Counted from the stretch's first letter, positions 825 to 31,160 are shown. The stretch is 42,797 bases of DNA from Geobacter sp. (GCA_009886055.1 VFJM01000015.1:1-42797), one strand, 5' to 3'. A program made the numbers and translations. Notes: generated by a model not told the origin, from the sequence alone.

Positions 825-1196
825 ATGAGTAAAAAAATAATTCTTGCCGTTGATGACGAGCCGAATATTTTGATGTCCATCGAGTTTATTTTGGACATGG
901 AGGGGTATGAAGTCCACACGGCGCGGGATGGGGATGAGGCACTGGAAGTTGCCGAACGCGTTCGGCCGGATGTGATCCTGCTGGACATCAACATGCCCCG
1001 CAAAGACGGCTACGAGGTCTGCCGGATCCTTCGGGAACGGGAAAGCATGGCCGGGACAAAGGTGATCATGTTGACGGCCAAGGGGCAGGCCCTCGAAAAG
1101 AAGAAAGGGCTGGAGATGGGGGCGGACGAATATGTAACCAAGCCGTTCAGCGCCGATGAACTGCTCAATACGATTCGAACCTGTATCGAGTCATGA
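825..1196 (+). CDS. Stand-alone response regulator receiver (CheY-like, no output domain)
   Basis: 123 aa. Acidic pocket in ILAVDDEPN, phospho-acceptor context VILLDINMP, and LTAKG / KPF motifs. The stop overlaps the next start as ATGA (1193-1196). Confidence 0.9.
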   Translation: MSKKIILAVDDEPNILMSIEFILDMEGYEVHTARDGDEALEVAERVRPDVILLDINMPRKDGYEVCRILRERESMAGTKVIMLTAKGQALEKKKGLEMGADEYVTKPFSADELLNTIRTCIES

Positions 1197-3364
1197 CCGC
1201 GGTTCAGGAGGAAAAACCCCTCCGTACGGAAAAGAGTCTGCGACGCCGGATGGTAACAGCGCTCTTGTCTCTGGCGCTGCTGCCTCTGTTCGTCGCGATG
1301 GTCGGCCTGTACTTTGTGGTCAGCGACTATGTGGCCGAGATCCAGCGGCTCCAGCCGGCGTCCCAAGTGTACGAGCATTTCAACTCGATGTGCCTCCAGG
1401 TTTCCTTTTTCCTGGTCGTGTTCACCATTCTGATCGCCGCCCTGGCGTGGGAGTTGGCCAACCAGTTCCTCCGTCCTATTCTGAAGATTCGGCGGGGCGC
1501 CGAAATCGTTGCCCGCATCAACCTGAACCACCGGATTGAGCTTGATACCGGGGACGAACTGCAGGAGCTGGCCCTGGAGTTCAACCACATGGCCGAGAAC
1601 CTGGGCAAGGCGTACGACGAGCTCGAAGGGCGTGTGCGTGAAGCGACCCGGACAGTGCAGGAGGAGCGTAATCGCCTGGCTACCGTACTTCGCACCATGG
1701 TCGACGGTGTGGTCGTAGCCAATGAAGCGGCTGAGACGATCCTGATGAATCCGCGGGCACGGATCATTCTGGATCTGGGATATACGTCCGGCATCGGGAG
1801 TCCTCTGTCGCGCATCTTCCCCAGTGATCGTCTCACCTTTCATCTGAAAAGACTGCGCCAGAGATGGGATCAAGGGCGGGAGACGGTAGAGGACGTGCTC
1901 TTTCCGCTCCTGGATGGAAAACTCCTCAAAGGTTCACTTTCGATTGTACCGGGGCCGGGGGGTGAGCGATCCGGATTCCTGCTCGTGTTTCGGGATTTGA
2001 ACAGTAGCGGCGATGAGGGGAAAAATTTTGAAGAGACCCTGCGGGAAATGCCGCTGCTCCTGCGGGGGCCGCTGGCCTCATCCCGCTCGCTGGTCGAGAC
2101 GCTCCAGCGGCACCGGGAGATGCCGGAGGAAAAGCAGATGGCGTTTCTGGATGCCGTTGAGGAGGAGATGAACCGTTTGAGCGAACGGGTTACGGCAATC
2201 GATGATGCCGCCAATGCGGCCCGGAGTTCGCGCTGGCCGGCCATTCCTTCGGACCCCCGCGATCTCATGGAGGAATCACTGCTTTTGGAGCCCGGGACTA
2301 CGGTCGAGATCGAGGAGTACGACACCCCGATTCCTCCTGTGCTGGTCGAACCGTTTTCATGGGTTGCCTCTTTGCGCTGCGTCCTTCAGTGGATCACCCA
2401 GATGAACCTGGAACAGCATTCGATCAGTGCCAACCTGAAGGTTGAGGATGGCACCGTAGTTACAACCTTTCGGGTCGAAGGGCACTTCAATGGCAGCCCG
2501 ACCGGACTGGAATCCCGGGAGGTATGTCCTGCCGGCGAGCCCCCCCTTCCCCTCGGAGAGGCGGTGCGAAGAAACCGGGGTGAGTTGTGGACCAGAACTT
2601 CAGGTGAAGGCCTGGAGGTGCGGCTGGCTCTGCTGCAGGCAAGCACCGCTTCCGAAGGGGATCATCCCGATCGGCTGCTGGATGGCGAACCGGAGTTTTA
2701 CGATTTCGACCTGTTCCTGCCAAGGCCGGTTTTAGAGCGGGCCGACCAGCTCCAGGCGGATTTGAGCGATCTCGAGTACGTCGTGTTCGACACAGAGACC
2801 ACCGGGATGCGGCTCTCCCAGGGGGACAAGGTCATCAGCATCAGCGGGGTCCGCATTCGCCGGGGGCGTATTCAGAACGCCGAGATATTCCACTCCCTGG
2901 TCAACCCCGGCCGTTCAATCCCTCCCGAATCGGTACAGTTTCACCATATCGAGGACCGGATGGTGGCGGATGCACCCTCGATCAGCCAGGTTTACCCGCA
3001 ATTTGTAGAATTTGTCGGCGACTCGATTCTGGTCGCCCATAACGCAGCATTCGACAAGAAATGTCTGGAAATGGCCGCCGCCGAGGCAGGAGTGCCGATG
3101 ATCGAAAACCCGATCCTTGACACCATTTTCCTTTCGCACGGAATCCATGAGAGGACTGAAGGTCACAGCCTCGACGCCACGGCGGAACGGATGGGGATCA
3201 CCATCGAGGGGCGCCATACCTCCATGGGAGACGCCCGTGCCACTGCCCAGATCTTTCTGGGCCTCCTCTCGCTGCTGCCGGGGCGAGGGGTGCGTACCCT
3301 CGCCGAGGCAAAAGCGTTCTGCGACCGCCATCTGCTCATGCGCTGGCAGTCATCGAGATTCTGA
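1193..3364 (+). CDS. Membrane-anchored HAMP-PAS sensor with degenerate histidine-kinase core fused to a DnaQ/RNase T-like DEDDh 3'-5' exonuclease domain
   Basis: 723 aa with two N-terminal hydrophobic helices and a HAMP-like segment (LRPILKIRRGAEIVARINLNHRIELDTGDELQELALEFNHMAENL). A PAS-like segment follows. The DHp-like box PLLLRGPL has Leu where the phospho-His is expected, and the G-boxes are degenerate. The C-terminal exonuclease motifs are intact: VVFDTETTG (ExoI), LVAHNAAFD (ExoII) and HTSMGDA (ExoIII, H-x4-D). Confidence 0.85.
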   Translation: MTAVQEEKPLRTEKSLRRRMVTALLSLALLPLFVAMVGLYFVVSDYVAEIQRLQPASQVYEHFNSMCLQVSFFLVVFTILIAALAWELANQFLRPILKIRRGAEIVARINLNHRIELDTGDELQELALEFNHMAENLGKAYDELEGRVREATRTVQEERNRLATVLRTMVDGVVVANEAAETILMNPRARIILDLGYTSGIGSPLSRIFPSDRLTFHLKRLRQRWDQGRETVEDVLFPLLDGKLLKGSLSIVPGPGGERSGFLLVFRDLNSSGDEGKNFEETLREMPLLLRGPLASSRSLVETLQRHREMPEEKQMAFLDAVEEEMNRLSERVTAIDDAANAARSSRWPAIPSDPRDLMEESLLLEPGTTVEIEEYDTPIPPVLVEPFSWVASLRCVLQWITQMNLEQHSISANLKVEDGTVVTTFRVEGHFNGSPTGLESREVCPAGEPPLPLGEAVRRNRGELWTRTSGEGLEVRLALLQASTASEGDHPDRLLDGEPEFYDFDLFLPRPVLERADQLQADLSDLEYVVFDTETTGMRLSQGDKVISISGVRIRRGRIQNAEIFHSLVNPGRSIPPESVQFHHIEDRMVADAPSISQVYPQFVEFVGDSILVAHNAAFDKKCLEMAAAEAGVPMIENPILDTIFLSHGIHERTEGHSLDATAERMGITIEGRHTSMGDARATAQIFLGLLSLLPGRGVRTLAEAKAFCDRHLLMRWQSSRF

Positions 3365-3432: not shown

Positions 3433-3624
3433 ATGAACAAGAGCTCACGCCGACTCGCCGCCCTGTTTGTCCTCGGAATAGCGGCTCTGTACCCCCCCCT
3501 GCTGGGGGCATTTAACCGGCCGGGGAGCTTCCTCGGGATCCCGATTTTGCCTCTCTATCTGTTCACGGCGTGGGTTATGCTGGTAGTGATCAGCTGGATT
3601 CTGGGGAGAGGAGACGAATTGTGA
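3433..3624 (+). CDS. Small two-helix membrane protein, DUF3311-like (symporter-associated mini subunit)
   Basis: The ATG at 3433 is preceded by GGGAGGG. The 63-aa product is MNKSSRRLAALFVLGIAALYPPLLGAFNRPGSFLGIPILPLYLFTAWVMLVVISWILGRGDEL, with two hydrophobic helices. Its stop TGA (3622-3624) overlaps the GTG (3621) of the downstream SSS-kinase. Its position directly upstream of an SSS domain is typical for DUF3311. Confidence 0.6.
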   Translation: MNKSSRRLAALFVLGIAALYPPLLGAFNRPGSFLGIPILPLYLFTAWVMLVVISWILGRGDEL

Positions 3625-6600
3625 ATGAAACCTTCTGGGTTGCCATCTTCAGCATGGGGTATCTCCTGGTATTGTTCGCCATCGCCTATGCCACGGACAA
3701 GGCCAGGGAGAACGGCCGCAGCCTGGTTGACAACCCATGGGTGTACAGCGTTTCTCTCGCCGTCTATTGTACCTCATGGACATTTTACGGCAGCGTGGGG
3801 CAGGCCGCTACCACCGGCCTCGCGTTTCTGCCGATCTACCTCGGCCCCACGCTCATCTTTCTCCTCGGACCGTCCCTGCTCAAACGACTCGTCTCCTTCT
3901 GCCGGGCGGAAGGGGTCACGAGTCTGCCGGACCTGCTTGAGGTCCTGTACGGAAAGGGGTGGGTTCTCGGAGCACTGGCCACCACGGTGATGGTGATCGG
4001 AGTTACCCCGTATATCGGACTCCAGCTTAAAGCGGTAGGGCACACCTTCGACCTGCTTACCGGAAGAAGCGCAGCTTCCGGGATACTCGGCGATGCATCT
4101 TTCTGGGCGGCCCTTGCTCTGTCGATCTTCGCCGGACTTTTCGGGGCACGGAGTCTGGTCGCCTCCGAACGTCACGAAGGGATGGTAGCTGCGGTGGTGT
4201 TCGAGAGCGCTGTCAAGCTGGGGGCATTTCTGGTGATCGGCCTGTATATTACCTTCGGAATAGGCGGCGGCCTGTTACAGGTTTTTGAAAAGGCTCTTGC
4301 TGACCCTGACCTGGCGCGGCTGTTCCTTCTCGGAGAAGGTTCGGGGGTATCGCTGCCGACGTGGGTCACCCTGAGTATCCTCTCCGCTTCAGCCGTAATC
4401 TTTCTCCCCCGCCAATTTCATATGCTGGCCGTCGAGAATGTACAGCAGCGTCACCTCCGTACCGCATCCTGGGCATTTCCGGCCTACCTGCTCCTGATCA
4501 ATGTGCTCGTACTCCCCGTAGCACTGGTCGGGCGGCTGTATGGGGGAGATATGATCCCGGATTTCTACATGATCTCTCTCCCTTTGACGCGGGGACATAC
4601 CGGTTTGGCGTTTCTCGCGTTTCTGGGCGGTTTTTCCGCCGCGACGAGCATGGTTATCGTCGAGGCGGTCGCTCTGTCAACGATGATCCTCCATCATCCC
4701 GGGGTAGCGGTACTGGGTGGTTTTTTCCCCGGATTTCGGAATCTGGTAAACCGTGACGTTTCTGTTCACCTCCTGCACACCAAGCGGGCCGTCATATTTG
4801 GTGTAGTGCTCCTGGGCTACGCCTTCAATCGATCGATCGGCGAGTCGCACACCCTGGTCGCGACAGGATTGTTGTCCTTCTCCGCCATGATCCAGTTTGT
4901 CCCCGCAGTTCTTTTCGGCCTCTTCTGGAAAGGGAGGACCAGAAGCGGAGCCCTCGCCGGGCTTGCCGCCGGGTTCGGCCTCTGGATATACACCCTGCTT
5001 CTGCCCAGCTTCGTCGATTCGGGGTGGATGAGCGAATCGTTTCTGACACAGGGACCCTGGGGAATAGAGCTGCTGCGGCCGCGAGCCCTCTTCGGCCTGC
5101 AGGGTTTTGACACCTGGACGCACGCCATGATCTGGAGCCTGGTATTCAACATGGGGGCCTACTTCACCATCAGCTTCCTTACATCACATCCTGCAGACGG
5201 GATCCAACGGTCCGAACTGCCGGCGGCATGGGCTACCAAGGCCGAACTGGAAGGGCTTCTGACACGGTTTGTGGGTGCCCGGATGGCCCAGGATGTACTG
5301 GGGGCTCTCCCCGATCGTTCATCACCCCAGCTGCTTCTGGAAGCTACCGAGCGCTGTCTGGCCAGTGCCCTGGGAACGCCGTCGGCACACATGATCATCA
5401 ACAGCACACTTGCGTGGCCCCGTGAACATGCGGTGGAGATTCTGGACGTCTTTGGCGGTGTTTCCCAAACGCTGGTGGAGAGTCGGGATGCCCTGGAACG
5501 GCGGCTGCGCGAGTTAATGGTGCTCCATGAGGCTTCACACGCCCTTTCACGGAGCCTGGACATCGACACCCTGCTGCAGGAGGTGCTCATGCTGATCAAG
5601 CGTGAGTTCGGGTTCGAATACCTGGGGGTCCGGCTCCTGGATGAGGATGGTATTTTACGGATCCGCAGCCACGTGGGACTCAGCGAGGAATACGTTATGG
5701 AATCCGCGATGGTCCCCTCACGGGAAACCTACTTCGGCACCTGTTTCCTGGATGCCAGGCCGGTCGTGGTCGGGGACACCCGCGAGATCAACAAGCCGCT
5801 GCTCTTCTCCAAACTGGCCGGAGAAGTTCCGATCAGTGCGTTTATCCATGCACCTATGATCTACGAGGGACGGGTGATCGGGGTACTCACCGCCTATACC
5901 TATCGGGGTCCGATGCACTTCACCGACGAGTTTGTCGAGCTGTTTGCGGCGCTGGCCAACCAACTCGCCATGGCGGCGATCAATGCCCAGCTTTACGGGG
6001 AGGTTCAGGCGTACAGTCTTGCCATGGAGGAAAAAGTGGCCCGGCGTACGGCTGAACTTGAAAAGGCCAATGCCCGCCTCCTGGAACTGGACCGCCTCAA
6101 AAGCGACTTCCTCTCTACGGTCAGCCATGAGTTCCGCACCCCGCTCACCTCAATCCGCTCGTTCTCCGAAATCCTGCTGCGCTACGATGTGGACGATGCG
6201 GAGAAACGCAAGAAATTCGTCGGCATCATCCATAACGAGGCGGAGCGCCTCACCCGCATGATCAACGACCTGCTCGATCTTTCAAAGATCGAAGCCGGGC
6301 GGCTGGAGCTCTTTCCCGAACCGCTGGAACTGAAGCCGGTTTTTGCCAGGGCCATCGGCACCACGCAACCGCTCTTCGCCGAAAAGGGAATCAACGTTGT
6401 CAGCACGGTCGAGCCCTCCCTTCCTCCCGTGTATGCCGACGCGGATCACCTTCACCAGGTGCTGACGAACCTCCTCTCCAACTCCGTTAATTTTTCTCCG
6501 GAGGGGGGGACGGTACGGCTCAGCGGGATGAATAAAGAGGGCTTTGCCCTGATCAGCGTGGCGGACGAAGGGCCTGGCATCCCGCCGGACAAGCTGGAGC

Positions 6601-6797
6601 AGATCTTCGAGCGCTTTCACCAGGTAAGGGACCCACAAAAGTCCCATCCGCTCGGCACCGGACTGGGGTTGACAATCTCGCGGGAGATCGTCGATAACAT
6701 GGGCGGGAATATCTGGGTCGAAAGCGAGTTGGGAGGCGGTGCGGTGTTCTTCTTCACCTTGCCTTTGGCAGCAGAGTCACCGGCCACTGAAGCCTGA
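3621..6797 (+). CDS. Sensor histidine kinase with N-terminal sodium:solute symporter (SSS/SLC5) domain, STAC-like linker, GAF, HisKA and HATPase_c domains (CrbS/CbrA-like architecture)
   Basis: The first ~500 aa hold about 13 hydrophobic segments with SSS-like motifs (e.g. FLGGFSAATSMVIVE). A GAF-like region follows (LDIDTLLQEVLMLIKREFGFEYLGVRLLDEDG...). The H-box is STVSHEFRTPLTSI with His at 6126-6128, and N/G1/G2 boxes are present (NLLSNSVNF, DEGPGI, GTGLGLTIS). I chose the GTG start at 3621 because of the GTGA coupling and the upstream GGGGAGAGGAG. The ORF-track start at 3570 would overlap the small gene by 55 nt. Confidence 0.85.
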   Translation: MNETFWVAIFSMGYLLVLFAIAYATDKARENGRSLVDNPWVYSVSLAVYCTSWTFYGSVGQAATTGLAFLPIYLGPTLIFLLGPSLLKRLVSFCRAEGVTSLPDLLEVLYGKGWVLGALATTVMVIGVTPYIGLQLKAVGHTFDLLTGRSAASGILGDASFWAALALSIFAGLFGARSLVASERHEGMVAAVVFESAVKLGAFLVIGLYITFGIGGGLLQVFEKALADPDLARLFLLGEGSGVSLPTWVTLSILSASAVIFLPRQFHMLAVENVQQRHLRTASWAFPAYLLLINVLVLPVALVGRLYGGDMIPDFYMISLPLTRGHTGLAFLAFLGGFSAATSMVIVEAVALSTMILHHPGVAVLGGFFPGFRNLVNRDVSVHLLHTKRAVIFGVVLLGYAFNRSIGESHTLVATGLLSFSAMIQFVPAVLFGLFWKGRTRSGALAGLAAGFGLWIYTLLLPSFVDSGWMSESFLTQGPWGIELLRPRALFGLQGFDTWTHAMIWSLVFNMGAYFTISFLTSHPADGIQRSELPAAWATKAELEGLLTRFVGARMAQDVLGALPDRSSPQLLLEATERCLASALGTPSAHMIINSTLAWPREHAVEILDVFGGVSQTLVESRDALERRLRELMVLHEASHALSRSLDIDTLLQEVLMLIKREFGFEYLGVRLLDEDGILRIRSHVGLSEEYVMESAMVPSRETYFGTCFLDARPVVVGDTREINKPLLFSKLAGEVPISAFIHAPMIYEGRVIGVLTAYTYRGPMHFTDEFVELFAALANQLAMAAINAQLYGEVQAYSLAMEEKVARRTAELEKANARLLELDRLKSDFLSTVSHEFRTPLTSIRSFSEILLRYDVDDAEKRKKFVGIIHNEAERLTRMINDLLDLSKIEAGRLELFPEPLELKPVFARAIGTTQPLFAEKGINVVSTVEPSLPPVYADADHLHQVLTNLLSNSVNFSPEGGTVRLSGMNKEGFALISVADEGPGIPPDKLEQIFERFHQVRDPQKSHPLGTGLGLTISREIVDNMGGNIWVESELGGGAVFFFTLPLAAESPATEA

Positions 6798-6803
6798 CAT
6801 ACC

Positions 6804-7907
6804 ATGCCTGATCAATCCAGCCCCAGGATGGCCCATGTGAATCCGAATCTCAGGCTTGACATGCTCGGTCATGAAATAGAGTCCGCCCGCACCATCGGCG
6901 CCCTGCGGGAGATCTGCCGGGGAATGCACGATACCGTGCGCGCAACCCTCGGTTCGGGGCTGGACACAAGAGAGATCGTGCAGATGATCTCCCGTTTGAA
7001 CGGTGCCATTACCCAGCGGATGATTGCCGTCATGGAACTCGACGAGGGTATCACCCTTCCCGGAGAAGCCGCCGTCCTCGCCCTTGGCAGTGAGGGACGG
7101 GAGGAACAGACCGTGCGCACCGACCAGGACAATGCGATTGTCTATGCCGACGACATCCCGCAGGAAAAACTCGGCACTGTGGAACGCTTCGCCATCCGTT
7201 TTGTGGAGGCCCTCGAAACAATCGGCGTTCCCCGCTGCCCTGGCAACATCATGGCCAGCAATCCACTCTGGCGCGACAGTATTTCCGGGTGGAAGTGCCG
7301 CCTTAACCACTGGATCACCGCTCCGACCAAGGAGCACGTGCTGAATTTCGGCATATTCCAGGACCTGCGCCCCCTGCACGGCAACCGACAGTTGGGAATC
7401 CAGCTGCGTGATCATATTCGCAACACCGTCCATAACACCATCTTCTTTTTCCCCAACATGGCCTCCCATGCCGTGCGCTTCCCGTCACCGCTTACCCTGT
7501 TCGGGCGTATCCGTGTCGAAAGGAGCGGTCAGCACAAAGGCGAGGTCGATATCAAGAAGGCCGGCATCTTTGCAATTACCGTAGGATCCAGCCTGTTGGC
7601 GCTCGAAATCGGTCATATGGGGGGGAACACCTGGGAAAAGCTGGAACTGCTCGGCAGGACAAGATTGATCAGCCCGAGAGACCTCGAGTCCATCAGTGAG
7701 GCGTTCTCATTCCTGGTGAAACTCAGGATTCGGCAGCAACTCCGTCAGATGCAGGAGCTGCCATCCGGCGTCATACCTTCGAATTACGTCGATCCGCTCG
7801 CTTTAACTGCCAGCGAACGGGACCAATTCCGCCAGGCCCTCAAGGGGGTAAACACGTTCCTGGGGATAGTTCGCAGCCACTACAAACTTGATTTCATCTC
7901 CACGTGA
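6804..7907 (+). CDS. DUF294-family putative nucleotidyltransferase (Pol-beta fold, GlnD/GlnE-like) with DUF294_C domain; lacks the usual cNMP-binding/CBS N-terminus
   Basis: 367 aa. NTase signature LALGSEGREEQTVRTDQDNAIVY (G-S-x9-D-x-D). Downstream motifs are typical of the family (CPGNIMASNPLWR, FGIFQDLRPLHG). It starts 6 nt after the kinase stop. Confidence 0.8.
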   Translation: MPDQSSPRMAHVNPNLRLDMLGHEIESARTIGALREICRGMHDTVRATLGSGLDTREIVQMISRLNGAITQRMIAVMELDEGITLPGEAAVLALGSEGREEQTVRTDQDNAIVYADDIPQEKLGTVERFAIRFVEALETIGVPRCPGNIMASNPLWRDSISGWKCRLNHWITAPTKEHVLNFGIFQDLRPLHGNRQLGIQLRDHIRNTVHNTIFFFPNMASHAVRFPSPLTLFGRIRVERSGQHKGEVDIKKAGIFAITVGSSLLALEIGHMGGNTWEKLELLGRTRLISPRDLESISEAFSFLVKLRIRQQLRQMQELPSGVIPSNYVDPLALTASERDQFRQALKGVNTFLGIVRSHYKLDFIST

Positions 7908-8298: not shown

Positions 8299-9693
8299 TT
8301 ACTTCGGCAGACCCGGCTCGGTCAGATGCTCCGGCTGCATGATCTTGTCCAGCTCACGAGGTGACATCAACTCCTGCTCCAGCACGATTTCACGGATGCT
8401 CCTGCCGCTGGCGACCGATTCCTTGGCGATGGCAGCCGAGGCGTTATAGCCGATGTATGGAGCCAGCACCGTCACCAGTCCAAGCGAATCCTCCAGATAC
8501 CGGCGACAGCGCACTTCGTTGGCCGTTATTCCATTTATACAGGATTCGGTGAATTTCTGCACGCAATTCTTGAGTATTTCCATTGAAAACGTCAGGTTCC
8601 AGGATATAAGCGGCATCATCACATTCAGCTCCAGCTGCCCCGCCTGGGCCGCCAGCAGCACCGCCTGATCGCACCCCATTACCTGGAAGCAGACCATGTT
8701 GGCCATCTCGGCCATGGAGGGATTGATCTTGCCCGGCATGATCGATGAACCGGGCTGGATGGCGGGGAGGCGGATTTCATCCAGACCGGTGCGGGGGCCC
8801 GAAGCCAGCAGGCGGAGGTCGTTTGCAATCCGGCCAAGGTTGACCGCGGTACGGCGGAGGGACGATGAAAGAGCCAGAAAGGGGTCCATGTTCTGCATCG
8901 CCTCGAACAGGTCGGGGGAGGCGACCAGCGGAAAACCGGTGGCAACGGTCAGCTCTTCGATCATGGCCGTGATATAGGCCGGTTCGGCATTCAGGCCGGT
9001 TCCAACGGCGGTGCCGCCGATCCCCACTTCCAGCAGGGCCGGGATACACCCCTCCAGCCCCTCCCGGTTCTTGCGGATCGCTACGGCGTATGCGCCGAAC
9101 TCCTGTCCCATCCGGATCGGGACGGCGTCCTGCAAGTGGGTGCGCCCCGACTTGAGGATATGATCGAACTCACCCGCCTTGGCGGCCAGGGCCAGCTCCA
9201 GCCCTTCAAGCACCTCAAGCAGCGGATCGAGCATCTCCAGAGACGCCAGACGGATGGCTGTCGGGATGACATCGTTGGTGGATTGGGCCATATTGACGTG
9301 GTCATTCGGGTGGAGGGTGGAGAAATCGCCCCTCTGGCGCCCCAGAAGTTCCAGCGCACGGTTGGCGAGCACCTCGTTGGCGTTCATGTTGTGAGACGTT
9401 CCGGCACCGGCCTGAAAGGGATCTACCACGAACTGGTCGGCGAGTTCCCCGGTCAGCACCTCATCGGCAGCGGCCATAATAGCGGTGCCGATTTCTGAAG
9501 GCAGCCTGCCGGTGGACATGTTGGCCTTTGCGGCGCACTTCTTGATGATCACGGTTCCCCAGACATAGGCCCGGTGCGGCTTCAAGCCCGAGATCGGGAA
9601 ATTATGCACGGCCCGGGCGGTCTGCGCCCCGTAATAGGCCTCAGCCGGAACGTGCATCTCCCCCATGGAATCTTTTTCAATGCGTGTGGTCAT
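8299..9693 (-). CDS. aspA: Aspartate ammonia-lyase (class II fumarase/aspartase superfamily)
   Basis: Motifs include GSSIMPGKINPSMAEM (SS-loop, closer to the aspartase NPVM form than the fumarase NPTQC form), AQSTNDVIPTA and GRTHLQDAVPIRMGQEF. The N-terminus is MTTRIEKDSMGEMHVPAEAYYGAQT. I chose the start at the ATG (complement of 9691-9693), 7 nt after GGAGG. The ORF-track start at 9756 is an upstream extension. Confidence 0.8.
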   Translation of the reverse strand: MTTRIEKDSMGEMHVPAEAYYGAQTARAVHNFPISGLKPHRAYVWGTVIIKKCAAKANMSTGRLPSEIGTAIMAAADEVLTGELADQFVVDPFQAGAGTSHNMNANEVLANRALELLGRQRGDFSTLHPNDHVNMAQSTNDVIPTAIRLASLEMLDPLLEVLEGLELALAAKAGEFDHILKSGRTHLQDAVPIRMGQEFGAYAVAIRKNREGLEGCIPALLEVGIGGTAVGTGLNAEPAYITAMIEELTVATGFPLVASPDLFEAMQNMDPFLALSSSLRRTAVNLGRIANDLRLLASGPRTGLDEIRLPAIQPGSSIMPGKINPSMAEMANMVCFQVMGCDQAVLLAAQAGQLELNVMMPLISWNLTFSMEILKNCVQKFTESCINGITANEVRCRRYLEDSLGLVTVLAPYIGYNASAAIAKESVASGRSIREIVLEQELMSPRELDKIMQPEHLTEPGLPK

Positions 9694-9984
9694 GATCATA
9701 CCTCCACAATGTAATAATATCCTGCTATCACTATGACAGATTAGATGCAAGTGCAATCCTGCACAAATCGCCTCATTTCGGCTCGCTAAATCCTGTGGCA
9801 GACCCCGTTAATTTTGCGACTGACGTCTCCGGAGCAAGGAAATTGGCCGCTTCTTTCGGCCATACCATGCCCACCAACTTATAAGGTCAATGCTAAATAA
9901 GCACTTCCGTGATCCCTATCACATCGTTACTGGCCTTTTTCAGCTATAACTCAGACACAGAATTTGCAGCACATTAGCATGCCT

Positions 9985-10060
9985 AGACGATAATACTAAA
10001 CCATTCGTGAGAATGGGACGGAAAGCCTACTGGGTCTCACCGAGACAGCCGGGTCGCCGA
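9985..10060 (+). promoter_or_regulatory. GEMM-I cyclic-dinucleotide riboswitch aptamer (A20 variant, candidate 3',3'-cGAMP-selective GEMM-Ib)
   Basis: ACUAAACCAUUCGUGAGAAUGGGACGGAAAGCCUACUGGGUCUCACCGAGACAGCCGGG aligns with my remembered Vc2 consensus GGGCAAACCAUUCGAAAGAGUGGGACGCAAAGCCUCCGG... The P2 hairpin CCAUUC-GUGA-GAAUGG has a GNRA loop, the junction reads GACGGAAAGCC, and a second hairpin GUCUC-ACC-GAGAC follows. The position equivalent to G20 is A (9995). The neighbouring pair covaries, G21-C46 becoming C(9996)-G. Confidence 0.7.
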
Positions 10061-10096
10061 AATATCATGAGAGATATTCGGTCCCCGGTTTTTTTG
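10049..10096 (+). terminator. Rho-independent terminator, expression platform of the riboswitch
   Basis: CCGGG-UCG-CCGAAAUAUC-AUGAGA-GAUAUUCGG-UC-CCCGG is followed by U7 (10089-10095). Its 5' arm overlaps the 3' end of the aptamer, so aptamer closure and terminator formation should be mutually exclusive. Confidence 0.6.
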
Positions 10097-10149
10097 TGCC
10101 GCAACGCCCCCGGGTGCTGAAAGTGGCACATGCTAAAAAAGGAGAACAC

Positions 10150-10635
10150 ATGAGAAGATTCGTTAGAAGTACATTCATCACCTTTACCGCACTGACCTTT
10201 ATGGTTGCTGGACTGATGCTGGCCGGTTGCGGCTCCGGAGGAGGGTCGTCTCAGGACGCCTCTGTTGGAACCCCGCTGGCCGGACAGGCGAGCCTTGCCG
10301 GGCAGGCGTCTCCCGATCCGAACAGTGCCGGTGTAAGCCCGGCTCCGGCCACAGCTACAACCACAACCACAGCTACAGCTACAACCAGTGCGCCCGTCTC
10401 CAAGCAGCTGACCCTGGCCTGGGACCAGGCTGCCGGCGCCACCTCCTATAATCTGTACTGGTCAACCGTTCCGGGGGTCACCCCCACCAACGGGACAAAG
10501 ATCAGCAGTGTCAGCTCCCCTTATGTTCATACCGGCCTGGCCGCCGGCACCAGCTATTATTACGTCGTCACGGCCGTCGACAGCACCAGCGAAAGTATTG
10601 CCTCTGCCCCGGCCTCGGGGGCCACGCCATTGTGA
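10150..10635 (+). CDS. Secreted lipoprotein with Ala/Thr-rich linker and fibronectin type III-like domain
   Basis: ATG at 10150 after AAAGGAGAA. Signal peptide plus lipobox in MRRFVRSTFITFTALTFMVAGLMLAGC. The C-terminal sequence LTLAWDQAAGATSYNLYWSTVPGVTPTNGTKISSVSSPYVHTGLAAGTSYYYVVTAVD is FnIII-like. Confidence 0.75.
   Translation: MRRFVRSTFITFTALTFMVAGLMLAGCGSGGGSSQDASVGTPLAGQASLAGQASPDPNSAGVSPAPATATTTTTATATTSAPVSKQLTLAWDQAAGATSYNLYWSTVPGVTPTNGTKISSVSSPYVHTGLAAGTSYYYVVTAVDSTSESIASAPASGATPL
10351..10386 (+). repeat. Imperfect hexanucleotide tandem repeat (ACAGCT/ACAACC x6) encoding a TATTTTTATATT linker
   Basis: Read directly as acagct acaacc acaacc acagct acagct acaacc, inside the lipoprotein CDS. 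Confidence 0.8.
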
Positions 10636-10703
10636 CGGCTGTCATGGTGCCGGTGGCTCCATGGCAGCATCGATGACAGTATCAGTTTCACATGCCTGAA
10701 AAA

Positions 10704-10738
10704 CCAGAGGGCTCCGTTCAGCGGAGCCCTCTGGTTTT
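10704..10738 (+). terminator. Rho-independent terminator of the lipoprotein gene
   Basis: A 13-bp perfect stem, CCAGAGGGCTCCG / CGGAGCCCTCTGG, with a 5-nt loop, followed by TTTT. Confidence 0.8.
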
Positions 10739-10774
10739 ATTCAACCTTGATTATTACGGGGCCAGGCTTCCAAG

Positions 10775-10802
10775 TTGACAAGTTGATTATTTGGAGTATC
10801 TT
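10775..10802 (+). promoter_or_regulatory. Candidate sigma70 promoter upstream of the DUF853 ATPase gene
   Basis: Consensus -35 TTGACA (10775-10780), a 16-nt spacer, and -10 TATCTT (10797-10802). It lies about 180 nt upstream of the ATG at 10983. Confidence 0.3.
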
Positions 10803-10982
10803 TTCAACTCGGCACGCAAACCACACCAGGAAGGAACAGTCAGGTTTGCCTACCAAGTTCACGCTCTATTCCTTATGACCAACAACATCCATTCCAACTG
10901 AGCGCCATTCCTAACCGGAATGCGACCCCGGCAGGTCAGCGCCCACTCCGTTGAATAAATAAGCACTAAAGGAGCCTATACC

Positions 10983-12482
10983 ATGGCCTCTCCCCTGCGC
11001 ATCGCCAAGACCGATCAGACCGAGTTGTTCATTCTTCCATCCATGGCCAACCGGCACGGATTGATCACCGGAGCCACCGGCACCGGGAAAACCGTCACCC
11101 TTCAGACACTGGCGGAACAGTTTTCCGCCATCGGGGTACCCTGTTTCATGTCCGACGTCAAGGGAGACCTGACAGGAATTTCCCAGATTGGCGGCGACAA
11201 CGGAAAAGTAACTGAGCGTCTGGAAAAACTCGGGATTTCAGACCATCAGTTCCGTGCATATCCGGTAACACTCTGGGACCCGTTCGGTGAAACCGGACAT
11301 CCGGTGCGTGCTACCGTATCCGACATGGGCCCTCTGCTGCTGGCGCGGATTCTGGAGTTGAACGAGACCCAGAGCGGCGTTCTTAACCTGCTGTTCAAGG
11401 TCGCTGATGACAACGGCCTGCTCCTGCTGGATTTGAAGGATCTGCGGGGTATGCTGCAATTTATCGGCGACAATTCAAAAAGATTCACCACTGAATACGG
11501 CAACATCTCCTCCGCCAGCGTTGGCGCTATCCAGCGCGGGCTGCTGGCATTTGAAAGCCAGGGTGGGGACAGAATCTTCGGTGAGCCGATGCTGAATATT
11601 GATGATTTGATGCAGACCGAACGGGGCTGCGGCGTCATTAACATCTTGTCTGCCGACAAACTCATGAAGGCCCCAAAATTATACGCCACTCTTCTGTTAT
11701 GGCTGCTCTCCGAGCTGTTCGAAAATCTGCCGGAAGCGGGAGATCTGGAAAAGCCGAAACTGGTCTTTTTCTTCGACGAGGCCCATCTCCTTTTCACCGA
11801 CGCTCCTGCGGCGCTGCTGGAAAAGATCGAACAGATGGTACGTTTGATCCGCTCCAAGGGGGTCGGAGTCTTTTTCATAACCCAGAACCCGGCCGATGTA
11901 CCTGACAAAGTGCTTTCGCAGCTGGGCAACCGGCTGCAGCATGCCCTGCGCGCCTTTTCGCCGCGCGATCAGAAGGCGGTCAGGGCCGCAGCCGAGACCA
12001 TGCGCGACAACAGCGCCCTGGACGAAGAAAAGGCCATCACCGAACTGGGCGTAGGAGAAGCGCTGGTCTCCTGTCTGGACGAACATGGACAGCCCGGAAT
12101 CGTCGAGCGCGCCTTTATCATACCGCCACATTCCCATATAGGCCCGATCAACGCCGACCAGCGGCAGCAGCTGATCCAGTCATCTCTGGTAGCCGGGGTG
12201 TATGAAAAGATGGTTGATCGGGAGTCGGCATACGAGATTCTCAAGGCGCGCGCTGAACAGGCCGCCGCACAGGAGCAGCCTGAGTCAGGCGCCCCCTCAT
12301 CAGGAACGACGCTTGGAGGGATGCTGGAAGATATGCTCGGAGGGAGCTCCGGCTCGGCGGGAAGACGGCGGGAAGGGATCGTAGAGGCCATGGCCAAGAG
12401 TGCCGCCCGTTCCGTGGGGAGTCAGGTAGGGCGGGCCATTATGCGTGGTGTGCTTGGCTCGATTCTTGGCGGAAGACGCTGA
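10983..12482 (+). CDS. DUF853 family P-loop NTPase (YjgR-like, HerA/FtsK-like ATPase)
   Basis: 499 aa. The N-terminus resembles E. coli YjgR as I remember it: [27 protein letters not shown] (Walker A) and [13 protein letters not shown] (Walker B). The C-terminal tail is Gly/Ser-rich. Confidence 0.8.
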
Positions 12483-16616: not shown

Positions 16617-17755
16617 AAACGCACACACCCCTCTCTTTCGCGCGTTTCTGGGCAATCGTCATCAAGGAATTTGTCCAGATGCGGAGGGATCGCCTCACCT
16701 TCGGCATGATCATCGGCATCCCGGTGGTTCAGCTCATGCTCTTCGGTTATGCGATAAACGGAGATCCGAAACACCTCCCGACCGCGGTGCTGCTGGCCGA
16801 CAGCAGCCAGCAGGGGCGGGCCCTGCTCTCTGCTCTCAAAAACAGCGATTATTTCAACTTTGTCCGCGAGGTTCATACCGAAGCGGAGGGAGAGGCGGCC
16901 CTCGCGCGCGGTGAAGTCCAGTTTATCGTCACCATTCCGGTGAATTTCGGCCGCAACCTGCTGCGCGGCGAGAAGCCGACCGTCCTGGTAGAGGCGGATG
17001 CGACCGATCCGTCAGCCACCGGCAACGCCATCGCCTCGCTGCGCACCCTTCTTAACAGTGCGCTGCAGCACGACCTCAAAGGAGCGCTGGCATTTCTGGC
17101 GGGGAGCGACCCCCCGATAAATCTGCGCGTCCACGCCCGCTACAACCCGGAGGGAATTTCGCAGTACAATATTGTGCCGGGGCTGATGGGGGTGGTGTTA
17201 ACCATGACCATGGTCATGATCACCGGCCTTGCCATTACCCGGGAACGAGAACGGGGCACGATGGAAAACCTCCTCTCCATGCCGACAAGGCCGCTCGAGG
17301 TTCTGCTCGGCAAAATCATCCCCTATATTTTTGTCGGGTACATCCAGGTCGGGCTGATCCTGGTCGCGGCACGATTTTTGTTCCACGTGCCGATGACCGG
17401 GAGCATCCCGCTGCTGCTGCTGACCTCTCTGGTATTTATCGCCGCAAACCTGGCGATGGGAATCACCTTCTCCACCTTGGCAAAAAACCAGCTCCAGGCC
17501 GTGCAGATGACCTTTTTCTTCTTCCTCCCGTCACTGCTGCTCTCCGGGTTCATGTTCCCGTTCCGCGGCATGCCGGAATGGGCTCAGGTCATCGGCGAGG
17601 TTTTGCCGCTCACCCATTTCTTAAGGATCATCCGGGGGATTCTCCTCAAAGGGAACGGCTTTGAAGAGGTGATGCTGCAGCTCTGGCAGATCATGCTCTT
17701 CGCCGTTATCGTCCTGGCGGTCGGGGTCAAGCGCTACCGGAAAACCTTGGATTAA
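16613..17755 (+). CDS. ABC-2 type transporter permease
   Basis: 380 aa with an N-terminal TM, a large extracytoplasmic loop and then five clustered TM segments. This is a YhhJ/YbhR-like layout. Confidence 0.85.
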   Translation: MKTHTPLSFARFWAIVIKEFVQMRRDRLTFGMIIGIPVVQLMLFGYAINGDPKHLPTAVLLADSSQQGRALLSALKNSDYFNFVREVHTEAEGEAALARGEVQFIVTIPVNFGRNLLRGEKPTVLVEADATDPSATGNAIASLRTLLNSALQHDLKGALAFLAGSDPPINLRVHARYNPEGISQYNIVPGLMGVVLTMTMVMITGLAITRERERGTMENLLSMPTRPLEVLLGKIIPYIFVGYIQVGLILVAARFLFHVPMTGSIPLLLLTSLVFIAANLAMGITFSTLAKNQLQAVQMTFFFFLPSLLLSGFMFPFRGMPEWAQVIGEVLPLTHFLRIIRGILLKGNGFEEVMLQLWQIMLFAVIVLAVGVKRYRKTLD

Positions 17756-17758
17756 AAG

Positions 17759-18289
17759 TCAGGCCGTACACACAACCCCCAACCGTGAGGCGGCTTCCCG
17801 GTAGACCTGCTGAGCTCCGGCACTGAACTGGACGAAGATGATCCGCTCCAGTTCCGGATACTGCCTGGCAGCGCTCTTAGCCGCCGAAAGGGCGATAACC
17901 GCCGCCTCGTGCATCGGATAGCCGTAGACCCCGGCGCTGATGGCGGGAAAGGCGATGCTTCTCAATCCGTGCTGATGCGCCACCTCGAAACAGCGACGAT
18001 AGGCTGATTCCAGCAGCGCAGGCTCCCCCTTTCCTCCGCCGTTCCAGACCGGTCCGACGGTGTGGATGACATGCTTTGCCGGAAGCCGGTAGCCGCCGCT
18101 GATTTTGGCGTCTCCGGTCTCGCACGCTCCCAGCCCGGCGCACTCCTGCAGCAACTCCGGTCCGGCGCCCCGGTGGATGGCGCCATCAACGCCCCCTCCC
18201 CCCAGCAGGGTCTTGTTGGCGGCATTAACGATGGCATCCACCGCCAGTGTGGTGATATCTCCCTGAATGATTTCGATGGTTGCCGACAT
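17759..18289 (-). CDS. Macro domain protein (O-acetyl-ADP-ribose deacetylase, YmdB-like)
   Basis: [42 protein letters not shown] and [13 protein letters not shown] are canonical macro-domain motifs. Confidence 0.9.
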
Positions 18290-18350
18290 GGCTCCTCCGC
18301 TAAAACAGATTTGTACAGATTCATCTGTTAGCAGGTATCGGCTGTTTTCT

Positions 18351-18401
18351 GCAACAAAAACAAAACGGCCCGTTGCCGCACATTCGTGACAAGGGCCGTT
18401 T
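18351..18401 (-). terminator. Probable terminator of the ygbA-like / ferredoxin-like operon
   Basis: On the minus strand an imperfect hairpin (AAACGGCCC ... GGGCCGTTT with an interrupted inner stem) is followed by TTTTGTTTTTGTTG. Confidence 0.45.
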
Positions 18402-18423
18402 GAATATTCCGAGAGGGTAGTGG

Positions 18424-19170: not shown

Positions 19171-19202
19171 GTGCTATCTCCTTTTATTTGGAATCGGTAG
19201 AG

Positions 19203-23554: not shown

Positions 23555-23731
23555 AATGAACTCCAGAAACACCGCTATTTAAAAAGACTGTTTATCAATT
23601 GCATTCACACATCTTGAGTGTGCTAACTTCACGGATATATCAGTTCAATGAAGACATGGCAAGAAACTGCATCAGATTACATGCATGAGCAGCAGCGAAA
23701 CCGATATAAAAAATGCTGGTATGAATAAGAC

Positions 23732-25981: not shown

Positions 25982-26004
25982 GATCCTTCTCTTTTGACTT
26001 GGTA

Positions 26005-27775: not shown

Positions 27776-27983
27776 AGTGAGTTAGATGTTATTTTCTGCT
27801 TTGTTTAGTACGGTAGAAATTATTTATGCGGTTTTTTGCAGAAATGATTTTGTTAGCGTACTTATCCAATTTATTGGGACCGGCAGAAATCACTTCGTGA
27901 ACGAACTATCCTGTCTATGCGGGATGAAAAGGAGATGGTTGGCATCGGTAACGATTACAACCATTTTAAAAGGAGGTACAGCA

Positions 27984-30900
27984 ATGGCGGTATCACGTAG
28001 AGATTTTTTCAAACTCTCCGGTTCCGGGCTTGCGGTTGCCACCCTCGGTTTCAACCTCGCTCCAGTCGAGGCCAAAGCAGAGGATCTGGCTATCCGCTAT
28101 GCCAAAGAGACCACCAGCATCTGTCCGTACTGCGCAGTCGGTTGCGGCATGATTGTGCATACGCTTGGTGGCAACATTATCAACATTGAGGGTGACCCTG
28201 ATCATCCGATCAATGAGGGGGCACTCTGCCCGAAAGGCTCTTCGGCGTATCAATTGCGTGATAACAAGGCGCGCTTGACCAAACCGCTCTATCGAGCGGC
28301 TGGAGCAACCGAGTGGCAAGAGGTTTCCTGGGATTGGGCCGTTGACGAGATAGCCAAGAAGGTTAAAAAAACCCGCGACACCAGTTTCGTGGCGACTTCA
28401 AAGATCAAGATCAAGGAAAAGATCGGTAATGCCGAGGTTGAAAAAGAGATTGAAGCGGTCGTCAACCGTACCATGGGTATCGCATCTGTCGGCAGTGCCG
28501 CCATGGATAATGAAGAGTGTTATCTGTACCAAAAATTCTTACGGGGGTTAGGCCTGGTGTATATAGAACATCAGGCCCGCATTTGACACAGCGCAACAGT
28601 TGCGGCTCTGGCAGAGTCGTTCGGACGCGGTGCAATGACGAACCACTGGATTGATGTAAAGAACTCTGATGTAATCCTTATCATGGGGGCAAACCCCGCT
28701 GAAAATCACCCGATCTCCTTCCGCTGGATCATGAAAGCAAAGGATGCCGGCGCAAAGGTAATTGTCGTTGATCCCCGCTTTACGCGCAGCGCCTCAAAGG
28801 CGGATCTGTATGCTCCGCTCCGCTCAGGAACCGATATTGCGTTTCTGGGAGGGATGATCAATTACATTCTGCAGAACAAACTTCATTTCGAAGAATATGT
28901 CAAAAATTATACCAACGCCGCATATCTGGTAAATGCCGACTTCAAAATGCCGGGTGAACTGAACGGCCTCTTTTCCGGCTATGACCCGAAAAAACGGAGC
29001 TACGATCCCAAGGCGTGGTCATTTCAGAAAAATGCTGATGAATCGATCAAGAAAGATCCGGGTTTGCAGGATCCCCATTGCGTTTTCCAGTTGATGAAGA
29101 AGCATTACTCCCGCTATACGCCAGAACTGGTCAGCAGAATTACCGGCACACCAAAGGATAAACTTCTGGAAGTATATACGCTCTATTCGTCTACCGGAAA
29201 GCCGGACAAGGCGGGTACGGAGCTGTATGCCATGGGGTGGACCCAGCACACGGTTGGCACCCAAAACATCCGTGCCATGTCCATTATCCAGCTTCTTCTG
29301 GGCAACATCGGAATCGCCGGCGGTGGAATAAACGCGTTGCGCGGAGAGGGAAATGTTCAGGGGTCTACCGACCAGGGGCTGCTGTTCCACATCCTCCCCG
29401 GCTACATGCCGGTGCCGTCGGCTGATCTGCCGTCCACGACTGCCTACATCGAGAAAAACACCCCCACATCCAAGGACCCGCAAAGTGCCAACTGGTGGGG
29501 GAACCGCAACAAATACCTGATCAGCTACCTAAAGGCGATTTATGGCGCCAAGGCGACCAAGGAGAACGATTTCGGCTACAACTGGCTTCCCAAGCTGGAT
29601 CCGGGGATGAACGGGTCGTGGCTGATGATCTTTGACAATATGATCAAAGGCAAGTTCAAGGGTTTCTTTGCCTGGGGGCAGAACCCCGCCTGTTCCGGGT
29701 CTAATACAACCAAAGTGAGAAATGCTCTTGCGAAGCTGGATTGGATGGTAGCGGTTAATCTGTTTGATAATGAAACCGCCTCATTCTGGAAAGGGCCGGG
29801 CGTTGATTCTGCATCGGTCAAGACGGAAGTTTTTTTACTCCCTGCTGCCGCTTCTTTTGAAAAAGAGGGGAGTATTTCCAATTCCGGGCGCTGGGCGCAG
29901 TGGCGTTATAAAGCGGTAAGCCCGCTTGGCCAGAGTAAACCGGATGCCGAAATCATCCATGAGCTGTACCAGAAGCTGAAGGGTATGTATGCCAAAGAGG
30001 GGGGGGCGTTGCCGGAACAGTTAACAAATCTTACCTGGAACTATGGCTTTAAGCGGGCCGATGGCACGGTCAAAAACGTTGATGTTCATGCCGTTGCCAA
30101 GGAAATCAACGGCTATTTCCTTGAGGATGTGGAGGATAAGCCGAAACTGAAACCTGGTGAAAAGGCTCCGCCACCACCTCCACCAGGAACACCTAAAAAA
30201 ATGCTCGGTAAAAAGGGTGAGTTGACAGCCGGTTTTGCCCAGCTGCAGGCCGATGGCAGCACCTCCTGCGGCAACTGGATCTACAGCCAGAGTTACAACG
30301 AAAAAGGGAATATGATGGCTCGTCGTGGCAAGAAGGATCCGACCGGGCTTGGCATGTTTCCGGAGTGGAGTTGGTGTTGGCCGGTCAACCGGCGCATTAT
30401 CTATAACCGCGCTTCCTGCGATGTTAACGGTAAACCGTTTAACCTGAAAAAAGCTGTTGTGTACTGGAATCCGGATGCACCACTTCCGAACGGCAAAACA
30501 GGCGCCTGGGTCGGGGACGTGCCGGATGGACCATGGCCGCCGATGGCACATGAAAAAGAGGGTAAAAAGCCTTTTATCATGCGTGCTGACGGAGTTGCTG
30601 CGATTTTTGGCCCCGGCCTGAAGGATGGGCCTTTCCCGGAACATTATGAGCCGATGGAATGTCCGATTCCCGAAAATCTCATGTCCAAACAGATGAACAA
30701 TCCTGCGGTAAAAATTTTCAAGGACACACATGTAAAAGAAGATGTGCTGGCGTCCAACGATGCGCGCTTCCCGCTGGTTGCTACTACCTATCGGGTAACA
30801 GAACATTGGCAGACCGGAGTTATGACTCGCAACACCCCGTGGCTTCTGGAGTTGCAGCCGCGTCAATTCTGTGAGATCAGCGTTGAACTTGCCAAGGAAA

Positions 30901-31160
30901 CAGGGATCAACAACGGCGATATGGTAGAGATATCGTCAGCCCGTGGCAAGATAGACGCTGTTGCCATGGTCACTCCTCGCTTTAAGCCATTTAAAATTGG
31001 TGACAAGATTGTTCATCAAATAGGTATGCCCTGGTGCTTCGGATGGCACACCCCCGGCGTGGGAGACGCCGCTAATCTGCTGACCCCCACTGCGGGTGAC
31101 GCCAACACGATGATTCCCGAGACCAAAGCCTTTATGGTCGGAATCGCGAGAAAGGGGTAA
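27984..31160 (+). CDS. fdnG: Formate dehydrogenase catalytic (alpha) subunit, Mo/W-bis-PGD, selenocysteine-containing, Tat-exported
   Basis: AGGAGG precedes the ATG at 27984. The Tat signal is MAVSRRDFFKLSG. The 4Fe-4S motif is CPYCAVGCGM. An in-frame TGA at 28584-28586 sits in the context EHQARI-U-HSATVAALAESFGRGAMTNHW, the conserved Sec site of FdnG/FdhF-type enzymes. The two ORF-track pieces (27786-28586 and 28635-31160) are in the same frame. Confidence 0.9.
28603..28619 (+). promoter_or_regulatory. Candidate bacterial SECIS upper stem-loop
   Basis: CGGCUCU-GGC-AGAGUCG (7 bp including one G-U) starts 17 nt after the UGA, with a G-rich apical loop. The exact SelB-binding geometry is not verifiable by eye. 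Confidence 0.45.

Follow-up and report, generated by a model that had tools for sequence, protein, structure and literature searches.

A predicted membrane exonuclease fused to a degenerate histidine kinase core and encoded beside a single-domain receiver and an SLC5-type sensor kinase

Introduction

The outputs of two-component systems are normally transcription, second-messenger enzymes or motors. DivL of Caulobacter crescentus is a pseudo-histidine kinase that senses the phosphorylated form of DivK (DivK~P) by a binding mechanism. DivK is a single-domain receiver, and information has been proposed to pass from this receiver to the kinase-like protein (PMC4211667). In Pseudomonas putida the kinase CbrA has an SLC5 membrane domain; PDB entry 10ED is the CbrXA SLC5-STAC structure from this organism, and the small peptide CbrX co-purifies with the CbrA SLC5 domain (PMC13022988). 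The same species carries PP_0354/PP_0353 (CBS-DUF294 and RNase_T exonuclease), which form a single operon; ErdR binds to it, and few others depend as strongly on the SLC5 kinase system MxtR/ErdR (CrbS/CrbR). Deletions of these genes lead to poorer growth on propionate and pyruvate, their function is described as unknown by the authors, and the Pseudomonas aeruginosa homologues (PA3233/PA3232-type) adjoin actP/yjcH (PMC9927547; bioRxiv 10.64898/2026.09.07.749794). Here we analyse a 42,797-nucleotide stretch of DNA from Geobacter sp. (GCA_009886055.1 VFJM01000015.1:1-42797; the whole stretch is called the window), in which a single gene encodes a kinase-like core, predicted to be catalytically dead, joined to a DEDDh (DnaQ-like) exonuclease, and in which a CbrA-like kinase and a DUF294 protein are encoded alongside.

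The gene had been picked out in a first-pass annotation, made from the DNA alone, which knew of no characterised example of this architecture. Our literature search likewise found no description of a histidine-kinase-like protein fused to an exonuclease, or of this operon. Two-component signalling and pseudo-kinases are both known; neither their combination here nor a nuclease as the output is.

The fusion protein has a true kinase core

The open reading frame (ORF) lies at 1193..3364 on the plus strand and encodes 723 amino acids (aa) in the order of two transmembrane (TM) helices, HAMP, PAS, kinase-like core and DEDDh exonuclease. On re-reading the sequence, we found the ORF, coordinates and named residues of the first-pass annotation to be correct throughout. 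The kinase-like core comprises a degenerate DHp domain of two long helices (residues ~274-345; 2012..2227, plus strand), followed by a degenerate CA domain of Bergerat fold without ATP-binding motifs (residues ~346-482; 2228..2638, plus strand).

The fold of this region was assessed with AlphaFold2 (AF2). The full-length model is poor (predicted local distance difference test (pLDDT) of 52) and is confident in residues 350-480 only, and a separate model of the middle region was therefore made. In this model of residues 270-522, two long helices (274-305 and 312-345) are followed by an α/β domain with pLDDT values of 88-94. The best 50 PDB matches to it in Foldseek are all HisKA-type kinase cores, with 210-250 aligned columns; ZraS is the best match (2.9e-9), and the others include WalK/YycG, HK853, CpxA and EnvZ chimeras. 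The full-length model also retrieves kinase cores, with WalK and VicK on top.

Sequence profiles lead to the same assignment once the family alignment is deep enough. Built from 23 close homologues, a profile of residues 270-522 retrieved no kinase from the PDB sequences at E ≤ 10, and a shallow family alignment compared by hhalign with four kinase cores gave a probability of 25%. These weak early results arose because the alignments were too shallow, and deeper family alignments settled the homology: a profile of 79 diverse family members aligns with 56 cores of real partner kinases at a probability of 99.7% (E 1.3e-25) over 209 collinear columns. The DHp domain also aligns with that of the real kinase encoded nearby when residues 269-522 are compared with it by BLASTP (E 3e-5). 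In Pfam the HisKA match is sub-threshold (residues 290-336, E 3.7e-3, 17.7 bits against a cut-off of 26.9), and HATPase_c has no match in the window protein. The NCBIfam profiles WalK (2.9e-22) and NblS (6.5e-18) align to residues 57-343, running through HAMP, PAS and DHp. Residues ~275-482 are thus a true DHp and CA core homologous to those of kinases, and the kinase-like middle region proposed in the first-pass annotation is borne out by profile and structure comparison alike.

The core has lost its catalytic residues

Codon 2054-2056 is CTG and encodes Leu288, within the segment MPLLLRGPL; in the alignment of the 79 family members with the 56 kinase cores this leucine falls on the phospho-accepting histidine, as had been claimed. 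Among the 79 relatives the same column is glutamate in 51, glutamine, threonine or arginine in 5 each, aspartate in 4 and histidine just once. The N and G boxes, read earlier as degenerate, are gone in the window protein and in the family. By hand correspondence from the alignments, the N-box asparagine column holds Trp400 in the window protein and arginine or lysine across the family, and the aspartate column of the G1 box (DxGxG) holds Val428 in the window protein and tryptophan in 73 of the 79 relatives. EPPLPL replaces the G2 motif GxGLGL; the profile alignment places PLPLGEAV..RGELW on GLGL..GG.IW, and the segment PLPLGEAVRRNRGELW, singled out in the first-pass annotation, aligns with the G2 box and GG.IW segment.

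A kinase or phosphatase that works through non-canonical residues, using another histidine or dephosphorylating the receiver, would be compatible with two features: H307 is invariant within the Desulfuromonadales clade, and 21 of the 79 relatives have a histidine at position -4, one helical turn before the H-box. Neither histidine is conserved family-wide (position 307 is tyrosine, phenylalanine or histidine, with tyrosine or phenylalanine in the wider family), so no alternative H-box is present, and we rejected both candidates as acceptors. All three ATP motifs (N, G1 and G2) are absent, and the phosphatase motif H-E/D-x-x-T/N is replaced by E-G-S-R-A in the family and by L-L-L-R-G in the window protein. 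We consider an enzymatically active core very unlikely. With no conserved histidine at a true H-box in the 79 relatives, the earlier claim of a dead kinase stands, and from its residues the core is predicted to be catalytically dead throughout the family, having neither acceptor histidine nor N, G1 and G2 motifs.

The exonuclease domain is predicted to be active

The C-terminal domain (residues 530-688; 2780..3256, plus strand) is a DEDDh 3'-5' exonuclease by its match to Pfam RNase_T (E 3e-34; 119.3 bits against a cut-off of 24) and to TIGR00573 (90.4 bits against 71.5). All of the motifs are present where the first-pass annotation had placed them, with ExoI as D533-T-E535 (2789-2797), ExoII as NAAFD (residues 617-621) and ExoIII as H675-x4-D680. 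The five catalytic residues (D533, E535, D621, H675 and D680) are invariant in 79/79 relatives, and the domain is the best-conserved large segment of the protein (0.72, against 0.4-0.55 for the rest). The domain is therefore catalytically intact as judged from its motifs, with a predicted 3'-5' activity. Between it and the kinase-like core lies the motif PEFYDFDL (residues 500-507; 2690..2713, plus strand), recognised by its conservation in the family. As (R)PEFYDFDL it shows the highest conservation of any short segment (mean 0.81) and varies little or not at all among fused, PAS-only and stand-alone membrane-anchored relatives (alignments A4 and A5).

The closest solved relatives of the domain are the PolC exonuclease domain (2p1j, 4e-27), the DinG exonuclease and DnaQ. 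Together with the TIGR00573 match and the label 'DNA polymerase-3 subunit epsilon' that sources attach to homologues, this likeness could be taken to mean a proofreading or repair exonuclease of the DNA polymerase III epsilon type in which the sensor domains are incidental. The equivalog models for epsilon and PolC are all far under their cut-offs (dnaQ_proteo 95.5 against 222.7 bits, PRK05711 93.7 against 196, PolC 138 against 873), so the epsilon label is unsupported. Moreover, the protein is predicted to be membrane-anchored; the genes that accompany it encode a sensor kinase, a receiver, a nucleotidyltransferase and symporters rather than replication or repair functions; and the unfused Pseudomonas relative is under an acetate-responsive system, with mutants that have carbon-source phenotypes. 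This explanation is the least probable of those we weighed, and a proofreading subunit was rejected on the missed NCBIfam cut-offs and a genomic context unlike that of replication. A role in anti-phage defence was also rejected: the PADLOC matches are generic DEDDh-domain matches, and there are none for the kinase or the DUF294 protein.

The N-terminal half resembles that of a sensor

The two predicted TM helices (residues ~20-43 and ~66-88; 1250..1456, plus strand) were read from hydrophobic stretches in the sequence and from long AF2 helices, and the predicted outer loop between them is short, at ~22 residues. The HAMP domain (residues 88-137; 1454..1603, plus strand) is above the Pfam cut-off (E 3.7e-10). 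The PAS-like domain (residues 161-268; 1673..1996, plus strand) falls just below it in the window protein (PAS 21.7 bits against 22.6; PAS_4 21.1 against 23.1), and PAS is above threshold in several homologues.

In Geobacter and Desulfuromonas homologues of 830-911 aa, an insert of 110-190 residues, predicted to be periplasmic, separates TM1 from TM2 (alignment A1, columns 53-242); the window protein and its 723-aa relatives are without it. Its presence or absence among these homologues suggests that an external sensing module has been gained or lost inside one clade.

The family is widespread and varies in architecture

A word-based search returned 175 homologues in Geobacter, Desulfuromonas and Pelobacteraceae, none of them less than 64% identical. 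When 1.84 billion cluster representatives were searched exhaustively, 800 proteins matched at E ≤ 1e-30. Of the top 150, 129 have 600 aa or more, and most of the alignments run from about residue 70 to residue 715, with 29-37% identity. In a taxonomic scan of one genome per species, the family occurs in Beta-, Gamma- and Alphaproteobacteria (Dechloromonas, Accumulibacter, Competibacter, Thiothrix, Sulfuritalea, a Pseudomonas and Xanthobacter) and in Desulfobacterales, Nitrospirota, Chloroflexota and Actinomycetota. The pseudo-kinase-exonuclease architecture is thus not rare but that of a large, widespread family in at least five phyla.

The exonuclease module, made up of PEFYDFDL, the DEDDh domain and a C-terminal tail, is met in several architectures. 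A stand-alone form of ~294 aa with two N-terminal TM helices occurs in Alphaproteobacteria, where it adjoins CBS-DUF294 and SSF genes. A PAS-only form of ~470-500 aa runs from TM-HAMP-PAS straight into the exonuclease and has no kinase-like core. The context of these short PAS-exonuclease variants comes from three loci, too few to link the receiver with the pseudo-core. One of the variants (P0332) has CBS-DUF294 directly upstream instead of a receiver, and beside another (L089) the upstream ORF resembles the HD domain of a CCA-adding enzyme.

Two further loci differ in gene arrangement. On a metagenome-assembled genome contig (L008, GCA_044221575.1; 6983-9002) the family gene is broken into a pair of overlapping ORFs, of 343 aa with HAMP/PAS and 386 aa with the CA-like and exonuclease domains, with the upstream receiver and downstream small ORF retained; the split is probably a frameshift or an assembly error. 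A Burkholderiales contig (L023) has two pairs of receiver and pseudo-kinase-exonuclease in one cluster (9345-11968 and 16959-19526), together with two DUF294 genes and a symporter.

A receiver, an SLC5 kinase and a DUF294 gene accompany the fusion

ORFs were called in the fetched loci and in the leading 20 kb of the window, 89 sequences in all, and the window proteins served as queries against them. A full-length filter was passed by 83 loci, among them two (L004 and L005) that carry the 294-aa stand-alone exonuclease; 47 loci have at least 6 kb on both sides and are termed well flanked. In 69/83 loci (39/47 well-flanked loci) the gene immediately upstream, in the same orientation, encodes a single-domain receiver; a CbrA-like SLC5 kinase lies within 10 kb in 57/83 (37/47), and a small two-helix ORF precedes the kinase in 51/83 (33/47). 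A DUF294 gene is present in 57/83 loci (35/47) and an SSF symporter in 47/83 (26/47). The conserved cluster spans Proteobacteria, Desulfobacterota, Nitrospirota, Chloroflexota and Actinomycetota.

In the window, the receiver is a 123-aa single-domain response regulator (825..1196, plus strand; Pfam Response_reg E 2.5e-32). Its TGA codon (1194-1196) overlaps the ATG of the exonuclease fusion (1193-1195) as ATGA, and 4-nucleotide overlaps of the two genes are common among the loci. The translational coupling to an upstream receiver that had been noted for the window thus recurs as gene adjacency in several phyla. In 69 orthologous receivers the phospho-acceptor Asp54 is conserved in 68/69 and Thr/Ser84 and Lys106 in 69/69 each, and there is no C-terminal output domain.

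Downstream of the fusion, a small ORF (3433..3624, plus strand; ATG at 3433) encodes a 63-aa membrane protein of two helices that is CbrX-like by position. It is followed by the CbrA-like kinase (3621..6797, plus strand; assigned by Pfam and a PDB 10ED match), which has an SLC5-type membrane domain, GAF, and intact HisKA (6.8e-22) and HATPase_c (1e-29) domains, with no fused receiver. Residues 25-481 of the longest ORF of this kinase match PDB 10ED (P. putida CbrA SLC5-STAC) at E 1e-69. Judged from the sequence, the kinase probably starts at GTG 3621, in a GTGA overlap with the small ORF, and the longest-ORF start at 3570 is probably too far upstream. The last gene of the cluster (6804..7907, plus strand) encodes a 367-aa putative nucleotidyltransferase composed of DUF294 and DUF294_C (Pfam E 2.5e-40 and 7.7e-37); CBS and cNMP domains are absent from it. 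The presence of the SLC5 kinase and the DUF294 gene in the same operon as the fusion reframes its function.

No DNA-binding regulator was called between or beside the cluster genes in the window or in the Desulfuromonas sp. TF locus (L001). In L001, symporter genes lie upstream of the receiver. There is no symporter in this place in the window, where the left end is occupied instead by a P-loop ATPase gene on the minus strand (1-~560), which runs off the end of the stretch (…VVTLTGPRQSGKTTL…).

A link between DUF294 proteins, exonucleases and carboxylate use

At one locus (L083) the gene adjoining that for the pseudo-kinase-exonuclease (4775-6919, plus strand) encodes an RNase_T exonuclease, two CBS domains, DUF294 and DUF294_C in a single 715-aa protein, whose RNase_T domain is more distant from the window exonuclease (E 2e-24). 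At least 120 relatives of this protein were found, mostly of ~700 aa and often from Hyphomicrobiaceae, and all of those listed carry both RNase_T and DUF294. Such a Rosetta-stone fusion argues that the nuclease and the nucleotidyltransferase work together. Unfused exonuclease and DUF294 genes are adjacent in some loci.

The literature searched held nothing informative on DUF294 itself and no paper pairing DUF294 with an exonuclease. By analogy with the described SLC5 kinase systems and their neighbouring genes, the cluster appears to be linked to the uptake of short-chain carboxylates.

A possible receiver-controlled exonuclease

We propose that the fusion protein may be the effector of a two-component pathway that does not act through transcription, a proposal that, taken as a full mechanism with receiver docking, we regard as evenly poised between right and wrong. 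The SLC5 kinase would sense the flux or availability of small carboxylates and phosphorylate the stand-alone receiver. The phosphorylated receiver would then bind the DHp surface retained by the pseudo-kinase, a reverse use of the fold like that of DivL with DivK~P. Binding would alter the dimeric helical bundle and so switch the C-terminal exonuclease, with HAMP and PAS providing a second input. The exonuclease and the DUF294 nucleotidyltransferase may share a nucleotide-containing substrate, such that the one removes what the other adds to a 3' end or an oligonucleotide, and the balance of addition and removal would tune carboxylate uptake or assimilation post-transcriptionally. The more specific form of this idea, in which a bare receiver gates a membrane exonuclease through a dead core and the exonuclease antagonises DUF294, their opposed action on a 3' end, oligonucleotide or nucleotidyl mark serving as a switch for carboxylate use without transcription, is speculative, and we think it rather improbable as it stands.

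The dead core, the intact exonuclease and the coupling to a receiver in the first-pass interpretation have held up; the docking that it also suggested we infer by analogy with DivL. Conservation is consistent with such docking, both in the receiver gene next to the fusion in 69/83 loci and in the DHp surface. Helix 1 of the DHp domain, below the dead histidine, is the best-conserved part of the pseudo-core (0.58 among the 79 relatives), and the pseudo-DHp has in common with partner kinases the positions R+3, L+6, I+9, R+10, A+11, E+14 and L+16, as well as the PDMD loop, R+27, F+30 and E+37.

Several observations weigh against the proposal. In a covariation test, the identity between pseudo-DHp and kinase DHp was 0.261 for cognate and 0.257 for non-cognate pairs (permutation p 0.16), a null result of low power because the kinase DHp hardly varies. 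The specificity positions +7, +8 and +12 differ, being A/N/A in the pseudo-DHp and T/S/F in the partner kinase, and the H-box of the window protein, MPLLLRG, departs from the family consensus LTEGSRA. One locus (L078, 9824-11311) encodes a PAS-exonuclease variant without the whole pseudo-core, yet the receiver and SLC5 kinase are kept. At 11 of the 80 loci that contain the core, neither receiver nor SLC5 kinase is nearby. Finally, that the exonuclease has its nearest solved relatives among DNA-proofreading enzymes says little about its physiological substrate. It is the null covariation, the differing specificity positions, L078 and the eleven partnerless loci that hold the full mechanism at an even chance.

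In the main rival explanation the dead core serves simply as a scaffold or transmitter; it would dimerise and relay signals from the TM, HAMP and PAS regions to the exonuclease, with the receiver acting elsewhere, for example as a phosphate sink. The conservation of HAMP and PAS throughout the family would fit such a role, as would the direct joining of PAS to the exonuclease in shorter variants, including the one that keeps its receiver and kinase, and the absence of covariation between pseudo-DHp and kinase DHp. Set against it are the position of the receiver, immediately upstream in most loci and often with a stop/start overlap, and the lack of any other receiver target encoded in the cluster. 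In addition, DHp helix 1 is conserved beyond what a coiled-coil spacer would need and resembles the receiver-facing helix of the partner kinase. We view a plain scaffold as possible but doubtful.

The resemblance between the two cores allows another alternative, in which the pseudo-kinase regulates the SLC5 kinase, by forming a heteromer or by competing for the receiver, as DivL acts on CckA, and the exonuclease is constitutive or just localised. As close paralogues, the pseudo-core and the core of the partner kinase have the PDMD loop and an R..RF motif in common; both belong to membrane proteins encoded side by side, and DivL provides a precedent. This alternative does not readily account for the eleven fusion loci at which no partner is nearby, or for the retention of the exonuclease fusion across phyla, which suggests that the domains cooperate in cis; we judge it unlikely. 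Control of the exonuclease by the docked receiver is the reading that we carry forward to the comparisons below.

Other genes in the window

A formate dehydrogenase alpha gene is split between two same-frame ORFs (27786..28586 and 28635..31160, plus strand) by an in-frame TGA (28584-28586), which, from its sequence context, is most likely a selenocysteine codon. Just upstream lie selB (20259-22172) and selA (22169-23572), both on the minus strand, and tRNA-Sec (23832-23929, plus strand); FdhB, FdhE, MobA and MoaA follow the alpha gene. Divergent from this operon is a second, ordinary two-component pair (23996-27402, minus strand), consisting of a Cache-HAMP-HisKA-HATPase_c kinase (23996-25981) and a sigma-54-dependent response regulator (26005-27402).

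Discussion and comparison with known systems

If the proposed pathway exists, a pseudo-kinase that leads to a nuclease would be a novel output for a two-component system, and only DivL would precede it as a well-supported case of a kinase fold working in reverse. In the more specific form of the idea, DUF294 and the Pseudomonas PP_0353/PP_0354 pair would gain a function as well. The fusions and operons predict that the nucleotidyltransferase, exonuclease, receiver and SLC5 kinase lie on one pathway, which makes a role for the DUF294 pair testable. Among the carriers of the family are organisms abundant in wastewater and sediment, which feed on acetate and propionate (Accumulibacter, Competibacter, Dechloromonas and Geobacter relatives). 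For annotation, the label 'DNA polymerase III subunit epsilon' on genes of this family should be corrected.

From TM2 to the end of the CA domain, the fusion protein has the domain order and fold of kinases of the WalK, PhoR and NblS type; it differs from them in lacking the acceptor histidine and ATP motifs and in its extra C-terminal exonuclease. That exonuclease has the ExoI DxE, ExoII NxxFD and ExoIII Hx4D motifs of DnaQ and of the PolC and DinG exonucleases, but no polymerase or helicase is joined to it; it is predicted to be membrane-tethered, is preceded by PEFYDFDL and has another genomic context.

The neighbouring kinase resembles CbrA in its SLC5 membrane domain, and also carries a GAF domain. 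The small ORF at 3433-3624 holds the place of CbrX before the kinase, a likeness of position. The regulators differ: CbrB is a sigma-54 activator and CrbR is of the LuxR type, whereas the window receiver is a 123-aa single domain with a pseudo-kinase-exonuclease encoded downstream.

Like the Geobacter cluster, PP_0354/PP_0353 combines an RNase_T exonuclease and a DUF294 protein with an SLC5 kinase system and acetate/pyruvate (SSS) transporters, PP_0353 being likened by its description. The Pseudomonas genes are tied to the SLC5 kinase by transcription, with LuxR-type ErdR/CrbR as the regulator and a hybrid kinase that carries a receiver. In the window, by contrast, the kinase has no fused receiver, the receiver is bare, and the exonuclease has its own HAMP-PAS-pseudo-kinase input. 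The DUF294 protein also differs, since that of the window is without CBS or cNMP domains and the Pseudomonas counterpart is a CBS-DUF294 protein.

DivL offers the nearest parallel to the dead core. Both proteins keep the full HisKA-type fold without an acceptor histidine and are paired with a single-domain receiver, in the window by gene adjacency; the resemblance is functional and architectural only. DivL has tyrosine at the histidine position and keeps a more canonical CA domain, whereas the fusion family has leucine or glutamate there and its ATP motifs are gone. The output of DivL is control of the kinase CckA; that of the fusion protein would be the exonuclease to which its core is joined.

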